This document shows positions 16,014 to 18,123 of a stretch of DNA of 64,000 bases, piece after piece (position 1 is the first letter of the stretch; every line of letters starts with the position of its first letter). A model generated the notes under the pieces. It was given only the letters and a program-made list of their open reading frames with translations. It ran no database searches and was not told the origin of the DNA. The stretch is from Escherichia coli (lineage in GTDB: Bacteria; Pseudomonadota; Gammaproteobacteria; Enterobacterales; Enterobacteriaceae), in assembly GCF_003334335.1 (NCBI RefSeq), contig NZ_QOWQ01000005.1; one strand, written 5' to 3'. The position numbers and the translations under genes are program-made.

Positions 16014-16973
16014 TTATGCCATCGACGCGTAAAGGTTTTTAATGGTTTCCCGTAACCAGACGATCTTCGGATTATGGCTGTTCCGTTTATGCCACAGCAG
16101 GGTAAAAGGAACTTCCAGCTTTTTTTGCTGGCTTTCGTCAAACGGGAGAGGAAGAGCAACCAACGGCAGTTGATGGAGTTGATTGTAGTACTGACAGTAG
16201 CGCGGCGCGGTCGCCAGTAGCAGATTGTCGGGTTGCGCTGCCATAAACAGTGACTGCTCGAATTCCGGCAGGCTCATAGCAATCGTGCGTTCGCGTCCCA
16301 GCTCCTGTAACACATTGTCCAGCGCCCAGGTATCGCTCTGTTCCCAGCAAATGCTGATATGCGGATAACGTAAGAAGGTGTCCAGATTCCACGTTTGATG
16401 CAGTGCCGGATGATCTTTGCGTAACCAGACGCAGGGCACATCACTAAACAGCACTTCATAATCAATGGCTAACGGTAGCGAGCTTAACAGCTCCCGCGAG
16501 CGAGGATGGCTTTCGCGACCGGAAAAACCGATATCCACTTCACCACGAGTAATGGCATCTAAGGAATCGTAATCCCAGTTACGTAATTTGATGGTCGCCT
16601 GCGGGTAACGTTGGTAGATCTGTTTCGACAGCGCATTAAGCATGATCATCATCAGCGGTGATTCCGCCGCCAGCTCAAACTTCAGGCCGCGCGGTGTCTG
16701 GTGGTGCGGTTTATCCAGCAGCAGGTTGCTCATTTGCATCCACTCCGCCAGATTTTGCTCCATGCTGACCATCAGCGGTGTGGGCGACAGACCCAGCGGT
16801 GAGTTCACAAAGAGCGGGTCGTCAAACCACGCTCTTAACTTTGCCAGCGACTTACTCACCGCCGAAGGTGTCACGTTTATCCGCTTCGCCGCTTTGGTTA
16901 CGCTGCGCTCCTGCATCAGCAGTTGCAGACAAAGCAGCAGATTGAGATCAAGCGTGGTGATGGATTTCTTCAT
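16014..16973 (-). CDS. yidZ: LysR-family transcriptional regulator YidZ (319 aa)
   Basis: N-terminal LysR HTH (…[21 protein letters not shown]…); start trimmed to [11 protein letters not shown]; overlaps 3' end of mdtL. Confidence 0.85.
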
Positions 16974-18123
16974 GAGCGGCAACGGGGCGTCCAGGCGCGA
17001 CGAACATAATCAGCAACAGGCTCACTATGCTACAGGCAATCAGAATCCCGATCAGCATATTCCATGCGCCGATACCAACCACCGCTGCCAGCCAAATCCA
17101 CAGTGACGAACCGCAAACCTGCGCAATACCTAAGGTCGAGCTGGCTACGCCCGCGCGTAATGAAAACGGCCCTAACGCCTGACTCATCGCCACACCAAAA
17201 CCTACCGAGAAACCGGCGCAAATCAGCGTGATACCAAACAGAGAAACCGCATGGGAAGGTGAAACGGCAAGAGTGATCCCCGCCGCCAGGAATAACACCT
17301 GCGAGGTGATCATCAACGTACGTGGCTTAAAAATTCCCAGCGCAAATGGCGTGGAGAATGAAACGGTCATGCTGACGCCAGCGGTCAGCGCCATAATGGT
17401 GGCGTATTCACCGCGCTCAAACCCCATGATTTCCATCAGCAATACCGGTGACGTGTTGACGAAAGTGAGGATCACCGAAACGCTGAGGGTGGTGATAACA
17501 ACACGGCTGAGGAAAAAACGGTTAAGCAGCGACTCGCTATTTTCTCGTGGTTTATCCGAAGCTGCGGGGGCCGCTGGGCGCGTTTCTTTTAAAATAAACA
17601 AAGACAACATCAGTACCGCGATGCCCATCATTGCCATCGCCCAGAACAGACTCTGCCACGGGAATTTAAGCATAATCAGATGTCCGAGCACTGGCGCTAA
17701 CACCGGAATGATGCAGGTAATACCGTTGAGTAATGACAGCACTTTAGCCCGACGTCGATCATCCAGCGTGTCGCGCAAAATAGCGAACGCCACTACGTAA
17801 CAACAGCCTGCGCCCAACCCCTGTAGAAATCGGCCTGCAAGAAATAACGTGCTGGTTTCAGCCAGTGAACAGAACACCGAGGCAATAATAAATAGCGCCG
17901 CGCCGGGTATGGCGACCGGCTTTCTCCCTGAACGATCGGCCACTTTACCGGCAAATAACATCGCAGCTGCCATCCCCGCCAGATATACGGAGAACGCAAT
18001 ATGCAACTGCGCTTCGCTGGCATTGAGATCGGCGGCGATGCGCGGTAAACCAACGAGGTACATATCAATCCCGGCGGGATAAAGTAAAACCAGGGCAAAA
18101 CTACAAATCAAAAAGCGGGACAT
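16948..18123 (-). CDS. mdtL: MFS multidrug efflux transporter MdtL (YidY), 391 aa
   Basis: 12-TM MFS drug:H+ antiporter-like translation. Confidence 0.88.

Follow-up and report, generated by a model that had tools for sequence, protein, structure and literature searches.

A conserved overlap places the predicted start of yidZ, without a Shine-Dalgarno sequence, inside the efflux-pump gene mdtL

Introduction

In Escherichia coli, the gene for the predicted LysR-type regulator YidZ appears to begin before its upstream neighbor, mdtL, has come to an end. The question raised by this locus is whether such an overlap is a matter of annotation or gene packing, or whether it ties synthesis of the regulator to that of the efflux pump encoded by mdtL. 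We have analyzed the junction in a 64,000-nucleotide stretch of E. coli DNA (contig NZ_QOWQ01000005.1 of assembly GCF_003334335.1), hereafter "the window", and at the corresponding loci of other species. A first-pass annotation of the window had proposed that the two genes overlap on the same strand by 26–35 nt, depending on which start codon yidZ uses, that they are co-transcribed and possibly translationally coupled, and that the arrangement is unusual for LysR regulators, which more often lie divergent from their targets. The 26-nt overlap is itself already known, being part of the standard annotation and present in that of K-12 for decades. What is new here is that the start codon has been settled, together with a conserved −26/−32 geometry that lacks a Shine-Dalgarno sequence and a constrained 37-nt element within mdtL.

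Results

The overlap and the start codon of yidZ

Both mdtL and yidZ are located on the minus strand of the window, a point not stated in the first-pass annotation. The features of the junction are as follows:

18123..16948, minus strand: mdtL coding sequence, MFS efflux pump of 391 amino acids (open reading frame list, RefSeq, NCBIfam NF007782)
16950..16948, minus strand: TGA stop codon of mdtL (sequence)
16014..16973, minus strand: yidZ coding sequence from the conserved ATG, predicted LysR-type regulator of 319 amino acids (NF007581, RefSeq, homologue alignment)
16973..16971, minus strand: ATG of yidZ (sequence)
16948..16973, minus strand: the 26-nt overlap (sequence), present in 80 of 80 genomes with a length of 26 or 32 nt
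16980..16982, minus strand: alternative TTG of yidZ (MPLMKKS...), unsupported, giving a 35-nt overlap, in some Escherichia only

The overlap comprises codons 1–9 of yidZ (M K K S I T T L D), which in the mdtL frame are read as H E E I H H H A followed by the stop codon. The window is chromosomal: when a 2.4-kb query around the overlap, under which the genes are annotated as tnaB, mdtL, and yidZ, was compared with complete E. coli genomes, 5,424 of 5,426 matched at 90–100% identity. In the RefSeq annotation of a strain whose sequence matches the window at every position of the 2401-base query, mdtL occupies 2678-3853 and yidZ 3828-4787, and in K-12 MG1655 the genes occupy 3891615-3892790 and 3892765-3893724, respectively, both of which correspond to the 26-nt form. 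The same-strand overlap is therefore borne out by the open reading frames, by RefSeq (including K-12), and by all 80 genomes surveyed below.

MdtL scores 716.1 bits against NCBIfam model NF007782 (cut-off 417), with residues 1-391 aligned to profile positions 1-394, and YidZ scores 684.6 bits against the equivalog model NF007581 (cut-off 314), with residues 1-318 aligned to positions 1-318 of 319. Matches to HTH_1 (PF00126) and to the LysR substrate-binding domain (PF03466) have been precomputed for a 99%-identical protein cluster (P0002) and for nearly all full-length homologues; judged by the domains of that cluster, YidZ is a LysR-type transcriptional regulator. Because both reading frames match curated families over their full length and overlap in 80 of 80 genomes, the overlap goes beyond chance.

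We aligned YidZ with 16 homologues, which range from Citrobacter (83% identity) to Vibrio, Photobacterium, Psychromonas, and Shewanella (59–62%). All of the proteins open with MKK or MNK (n = 17, with K2 nearly invariant), and the DNA-binding domain begins at approximately residue 7, with its conserved LDLNLL motif at residue 8 onward. The TTG at 16982, which would extend the overlap to 35 nt (16948..16982), is changed to TTA in two Escherichia loci (L004 and L006) and is absent in every other genus. We therefore rejected it as a start, given that it is unconserved even inside Escherichia and is used in no annotation checked. Thus, of the range of 26–35 nt that had been proposed, the lower figure, measured from the ATG, stands and the upper one falls away. 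A start downstream of the mdtL stop codon, which the first-pass annotation had raised as the alternative to its own reading, is ruled out by the opening residues of the 17 aligned proteins and by the NCBIfam profile of YidZ, which begins to align at position 1. Mis-called start codons are, in general experience, a frequent cause of long overlaps; nevertheless, that this one is an annotation artefact, with the real yidZ start 3′ of the mdtL stop, is scarcely credible, given that M1 and K3 are shared by all of the aligned proteins, from E. coli to Shewanella, that the curated profile covers the protein from its first residue, and that the sole downstream ATG, codon 20, lies within the helix-turn-helix and is unconserved, being L or T in other genera. 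On this comparative evidence, the ATG at 16973 is the start of yidZ, and no other choice of start removes the overlap.

Conservation of the overlapping pair

One genome per species was scanned for relatives of YidZ, which yielded 80 loci. In all of them, an MdtL orthologue (57–97% identity) is located directly upstream of yidZ on the same strand. The overlap is 26 nt long at 17 loci (Escherichia, Huaxiibacter, one Lelliottia, Ewingella, Vibrio, Photobacterium, Shewanella, and Moritella) and 32 nt long at the other 63 (Salmonella, Citrobacter, Kluyvera, Klebsiella, Raoultella, Enterobacter, and others). Two loci are affected elsewhere, one (L070) by an assembly frameshift farther up in mdtL and one (L012) by an insertion, and the junction is intact in both. 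The mdtL stop codon always falls within the codons for the invariant L-D-L-N of YidZ, such that CTT-GAT provides TGA and, in the 32-nt class, CTT-AAT provides TAA.

The gene order in the Enterobacteriaceae is mnmE-(tnaAB)-mdtL-yidZ-yieE-yieF-adeP. Fourteen loci, which include all those of Vibrio, Shewanella, Moritella, Photobacterium, and Ewingella, have none of the E. coli neighbors and retain the overlapping pair. As the pair is kept where all of the E. coli neighbors are absent, mdtL-yidZ behaves as a two-gene module.

Signals at the junction

Two further features bear upon the expression of yidZ:

16974..16995, minus strand: cctggacgccccgttgccgctc, the 22 nt preceding the yidZ ATG, with no Shine-Dalgarno sequence (duplex energy with the 16S 3′ end)
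18124..18254, minus strand: tnaB-mdtL intergenic region, presumed promoter site for mdtL and perhaps for yidZ (gap between annotated genes)

Shine-Dalgarno sequences were assessed from the duplex energy between the 3′ end of 16S rRNA and the 18 nt at −20 to −3 before each start. None was detected for yidZ at any of 82 loci (median −2.4 kcal/mol; −3.0 kcal/mol in E. coli), and the median for the mdtL starts of the 82 loci was −6.3 kcal/mol. A consensus scan of the coding strand between mdtL and yidZ revealed no terminator-like site and no promoter-like site matching at least 9 of 12 positions, and no σ70 site was found by the consensus scan of the tnaB-mdtL gap. For this junction, the supplements of Adams 2021 list only a Rho-termination region, reported at K-12 position 3891617, the start of mdtL. 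No transcription start, operon, or ribosome-profiling record for the mdtL-yidZ junction was found, and the SMRT-Cappable-seq and Cappable-seq supplements contain neither these genes nor their coordinates.

The RNA of the E. coli junction is folded no more strongly than shuffled sequence (z = +0.49), and the mean unpaired probability around the start is 0.49 for yidZ versus 0.46 for mdtL. With the yidZ start as accessible as that of mdtL, we rejected an RNA fold that occludes it, as would be required for classical coupling by unfolding. Neither strand of 15800..18400 matched a covariance model of Rfam 15 at E values of up to 1.

A constrained block within mdtL

In a search for an internal promoter, we measured variation at synonymous sites of mdtL, using 65 distinct sequences from the Enterobacteriaceae. 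Over codons 354–366 (17064..17026), the mean synonymous heterozygosity is 0.10, whereas windows within codons 1–335 average 0.51 ± 0.05 and never fall below 0.35. The value for the overlap region is 0.21, and nothing comparable to the block is seen in yidZ, where the minimum is 0.33. The feature can be described as follows:

17026..17062, minus strand: 37-nt block GAATATGCTGATCGGGATTCTGATTGCCTGTAGCATA, under synonymous constraint, 53–89 nt upstream of the yidZ ATG

The block matches the window at a single place and has kept the rare codons GGG and ATA. In 64 sequences, GAATATGCTGATCG and TGTAGCAT (stretches of 14 and 8 nt, respectively) are invariant, while the intervening 14 nt vary. Ewingella, Photobacterium, and Vibrio hannami have the overlap but do not preserve the block at the nucleotide level.

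The block may be a weak internal promoter, a reading to which we return in the Discussion, or a hairpin. It contains the inverted repeat TATGCTG (17059..17053)/TAGCATA (17032..17026), the two invariant stretches are mutually complementary, and the RNAalifold prediction is a hairpin of 7 + 3 base pairs. The helix is kept, or extended, through wobble-compatible changes in Moritella, Vibrio brasiliensis, and two divergent enterobacteria, and the hairpin cells are paired at 92.6–95.4% with nearly invariant arms. However, the formal tests of the hairpin are non-significant: with a set of 27 diverse sequences, the observed pairing is attained by 53 of 500 shuffles and the covariation score by 172, and thermodynamic support is weak, the stability relative to synonymous shuffles having a mean z of −1.05.

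Several other interpretations were rejected. In several species of the 32-nt class, the minimum-energy folds have a long-range helix that joins GAUCGGGAU of the block to GUCUCGAUC at the stop codon of mdtL; this helix was dropped because it is absent from both the E. coli fold and the RNAalifold consensus. Reading GGCTGTAGCATA as an ops-like element for RfaH leaves two mismatches, and more in E. coli, at the specified positions of what we take to be the consensus. An att site of a mobile element was likewise discarded, since the 146-nt segment from the block to the junction matches, in phage and plasmid collections, only chromosomal fragments, misfiled chromosomes, and contaminated records.

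The published targets of YidZ

The claim that LysR regulators are more often divergent from their targets carried with it the implication that mdtL is a target of YidZ. Tagged YidZ has 118 ChIP-exo sites, 77% of them intragenic, and was called a global regulator (Gao et al., 2021; PMC8464067). None of the 118 sites is at mdtL or yidZ, as the site list jumps from rnpA (3882526) to rbsD (3931286) and the last three sites are beyond 4.54 Mb. Deletion of yidZ is accompanied by changes in 74 genes, and mdtL is not one of them (PMC8464067). The published data thus give no sign that YidZ regulates mdtL, and such regulation should not be assumed. ChIP-exo peaks of other factors, one row of which is flagged as RNAP-bound, at 3889534-3889632 (old coordinates), fall into the tnaB-mdtL gap after a conversion of ~+1,977 nt. 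The one YidZ ChIP-exo site in the window, at rnpA, contains the palindrome GGAGTTA-N7-TAACTCC, for which there is no counterpart near mdtL or yidZ. Two other strong sites lack this palindrome, so no motif is established for YidZ.

That the arrangement is unusual for a LysR regulator was a fair observation. yidZ is co-directional with both of its neighbors, mdtL and yieE, rather than in the classical divergent arrangement. The other uncharacterized transporter/LysR pairs described by Gao et al., namely ydhB-ydhC, ynfL-ynfM, and yfiE-eamB, have a ChIP-exo peak at the pair itself, which for ynfL-ynfM and yfiE-eamB is called divergent (PMC8464067). MdtL also matches the family model of PunC (1e-30).

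Discussion

The mdtL-yidZ overlap is real, and is ordinary in kind. By itself it changes nothing; what is of interest is that YidZ, a regulator reported to bind 118 sites across the genome, seemingly has no ribosome-binding site of its own, and that its start is locked inside the 3′ end of a pump gene from E. coli to Vibrio, Shewanella, and Moritella.

The reading we favor, in which we place middling confidence, is that mdtL and yidZ form a bicistronic module in which translation of yidZ is coupled to that of mdtL. The two genes are co-directional neighbors with overlapping stop and start, which is the arrangement taken to mark a translationally coupled pair. In this model, both would be carried on one mRNA with the pump gene first. 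The start of yidZ lies within mdtL, 26 nt from its 3′ end or, in most other Enterobacteriaceae, 32 nt. Because yidZ has no Shine-Dalgarno sequence of its own, its ATG would most likely be served by ribosomes fresh from mdtL. Such ribosomes might terminate 23–29 nt past the ATG and then return to the closest start; alternatively, ribosomes passing along mdtL might keep the yidZ site open for a new 30S subunit. We suppose that the invariant A-rich codons 2–3 of yidZ (AAG AAA) may aid initiation. The outcome would be a small and roughly constant amount of regulator for each round of pump translation.

The conserved geometry, taken with a junction at which no Shine-Dalgarno sequence, terminator, strong promoter, or occluding fold is found, suggests both that the genes share a transcript and that translation of yidZ depends on that of mdtL. 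To this extent, the proposal of co-transcription and coupling made in the first-pass annotation is partly supported, but the spacing of −26 lies outside the efficient range. Coupling is most efficient at spacings of −4 to +3 and drops faster with overlap than with spacing, although it has been shown at −38 in the coat-lysis pair of phage fr and at −50 in MS2, with ribosomes choosing the start nearest to the stop (PMC12548453). Given that range, spacings of −26 and −32 predict weak coupling at best, and this would suit a low-abundance regulator.

How else might the arrangement be explained? It is possible, though doubtful, that yidZ is expressed mainly from a weak promoter of its own in the 3′ end of mdtL and translated independently without a Shine-Dalgarno sequence, with the overlap being a matter of gene packing. 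A layout can be proposed, with similar reserve, in which CTGATC (17055..17050) would be the −35 element and TAGCAT (17032..17027), 17 nt farther on and 53 nt before the yidZ ATG, the −10 element, with transcription starting near 17020 and a leader of ~46 nt. Both hexamers are invariant and fall in the 13-codon block in which synonymous variation is so sharply reduced and rare codons are retained. Across the final 420 nt of mdtL, no other promoter-like pair is preserved in every one of the 65 Enterobacteriaceae sequences, and it is for this reason that we regard an internal promoter as a live rival. Moreover, as Rho ends transcription that enters mdtL from tnaB, such a promoter would secure expression of the regulator. 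However, the pair matches the consensus at just 7 of 12 positions with a poor −35, and so falls below the threshold of the consensus scan; the invariant stretches of 14 and 8 nt exceed two hexamers; the species noted above that do not preserve the block retain the overlap; and there is no entry for a transcription start here in the SMRT-Cappable-seq or Cappable-seq supplements. A transcript from this site would still have no Shine-Dalgarno sequence, and an internal promoter would neither remove the overlap nor supply one.

We tentatively suggest, as a rather unlikely possibility, that the overlap without a Shine-Dalgarno sequence and the constrained block together constitute a post-transcriptional device (hairpin, processing site, or internal operator/promoter) that sets the amount of YidZ as a read-out of transcription and translation of the pump gene. 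Were this true, the input in E. coli could include Rho-controlled read-through from the tryptophanase operon. The block is a concrete candidate for a cis-element that would tie YidZ to mdtL.

A different explanation is that the overlap is a functionless frozen accident, in which the stop codon of mdtL was lost, the next stops available were those in the L-D-L-N codons, and there has been no selection either way. Conservation of the overlap could indeed be partly passive, since the YidZ frame is the conserved one and the MdtL tail is merely its reading in the other frame. Nor is the size of the overlap exceptional: the eight co-directional overlaps in the 50 kb around the locus measure 1, 4, 17 (dgoA/dgoK), 4, 1, 37 (rnpA/yidD), 26, and 1 nt, and more than 80% of overlapping gene pairs share less than 30 bp (PMC12548453). 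We nevertheless consider a frozen accident unlikely. The MdtL tail, from the last membrane helix to the yidZ ATG, is poorly conserved, varies in length with 3-codon indels, and is rich in codons that are one mutation away from a stop (CAA, CAG, TAT, and GAA), and yet in none of the 80 genomes, among them the divergent Vibrio, Shewanella, and Moritella, does the mdtL stop lie upstream of the yidZ ATG. The consistent absence of a Shine-Dalgarno sequence would also be hard to explain if yidZ were initiated by itself.

Finally, coupling might be negative, with ribosomes on the last 26–32 nt of mdtL covering the yidZ start and keeping YidZ low whenever the pump is heavily translated. The sequence places the yidZ ATG inside the footprint of ribosomes finishing mdtL, and yidZ mRNA is low (baseMean 91; Gao et al.), but without a Shine-Dalgarno sequence there would be little independent initiation left to repress, and we regard this explanation as very improbable.

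If synthesis of YidZ does depend on translation of mdtL, as in the coupled model that we prefer, the level of YidZ would be tied to expression of an efflux pump, and the locus would be an example, occurring naturally in a chromosome, of coupling over a long overlap of −26/−32.

How does the locus compare with known systems? Like nhaA-nhaR of E. coli, in which a transporter gene and a LysR-family gene on the same strand are co-transcribed across an intergenic gap and NhaR activates nhaA, mdtL-yidZ has the transporter gene first and the LysR gene second; unlike them, the two genes overlap, and neither the published ChIP-exo sites nor the RNA-seq data link YidZ to control of mdtL. yidZ also resembles the regulator genes of the punC(ydhC)-punR(ydhB), ynfM-ynfL, and eamB-yfiE pairs in lying beside a transporter gene, but differs from those divergent pairs in being co-directional with the transporter gene, in overlapping it, and in having no YidZ ChIP-exo site at its own locus. 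As annotated same-strand overlaps of more than 4 nt, rnpA/yidD (37 nt) and dgoA/dgoK (17 nt) are of the same kind as mdtL-yidZ. Most cellular coupled pairs have spacings of −4, −1, or a small positive value, whereas mdtL-yidZ, for which coupling is only proposed, stands at −26/−32. The model of unfolding for MS2 involves an inhibitory hairpin, which the yidZ start does not have. In other respects, a parallel lies with the coat-lysis junctions of the RNA phages fr and MS2, the group in which long-overlap coupling has so far mainly been studied: there, as in mdtL-yidZ, the genes are co-directional, the downstream start lies inside the upstream gene, and the downstream gene has a weak or absent ribosome-binding site.

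A constrained block inside mdtL

Across 65 Enterobacteriaceae, synonymous heterozygosity falls to 0.10 in mdtL codons 354-366, versus 0.51 elsewhere in the gene, with the rare codons GGG and ATA retained within the following block:

17026..17062, minus strand: near-invariant synonymous-site block (~37 nt), mdtL codons 354-366

The invariant arms of the block, TATGCTG and TAGCATA, are mutually complementary, and it also contains a -35/-10-like pair, located 53 nt upstream of the yidZ ATG, which is invariant but weak (7/12).

The mdtL-yidZ junction in another genome

The same block is where the repeats around an insertion begin at the yidZ-related locus L012 of Enterobacteriaceae bacterium MGYG-HGUT-00110:

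L012:1437-3036: AT-rich insertion (~1.4 kb) in the mdtL 3′ end

On both sides of the insertion, within which no long ORF was found, are diverged direct repeats of ~120 nt (85-91% identity) that extend from the conserved block, past the mdtL stop codon, to approximately codon 12 of yidZ. Because of these repeats, the mdtL end and the yidZ start both remain complete. The insertion looks like a scar left by the integration of an element at the mdtL 3′ end.

Natural disruptions of yidZ in E. coli

Two natural disruptions were found, the first of which is at the locus L002 of the avian isolate MS1737:

L002:3827-5640: truncated yidZ locus

Here, yidZ is broken off after codon 100 and is followed by an IS91-family transposase, and the downstream sequence up to phoU is missing. 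At least some strains can therefore do without YidZ. The second, P0072, is an E. coli protein of 512 amino acids (27 contigs), in which MdtL residues 1 to ~301 are joined to YidZ residues ~110 to 319. This fusion is a natural in-frame deletion that removes the last MdtL helices, the mdtL-yidZ overlap, and the YidZ DNA-binding domain.

Transcription into mdtL and other overlaps in the window

Adams et al. (2021, eLife, supplementary file 2) place a Rho-termination region with a Rho score of 4.19 right at the mdtL start:

~18121 (K-12 3891617), + strand of K-12: Rho-termination region, tnaB/mdtL boundary

Given this location, Rho normally stops tryptophanase-operon transcription entering mdtL. 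Apart from Escherichia, only a few loci of Citrobacter, Silvania, and Leclercia have tnaAB directly upstream of mdtL.

Besides mdtL/yidZ, the window has two annotated same-strand overlaps of >4 nt:

24886..24922, same strand: rnpA/yidD overlap, 37 nt
36126..36142, same strand: dgoA/dgoK overlap, 17 nt

A YidZ binding site in rnpA

Only one YidZ ChIP-exo site (Gao et al., 2021) lies within the window, with a signal/noise of 79.5 (old coordinates 3882526-3882571):

25202..25222: palindrome within the ChIP-exo site, inside rnpA, codons ~8-15

The palindrome, GGAGTTA-N7-TAACTCC, was not found at two other strong YidZ sites. It is perfect, of the LysR T-N11-A type, and a possible YidZ box.
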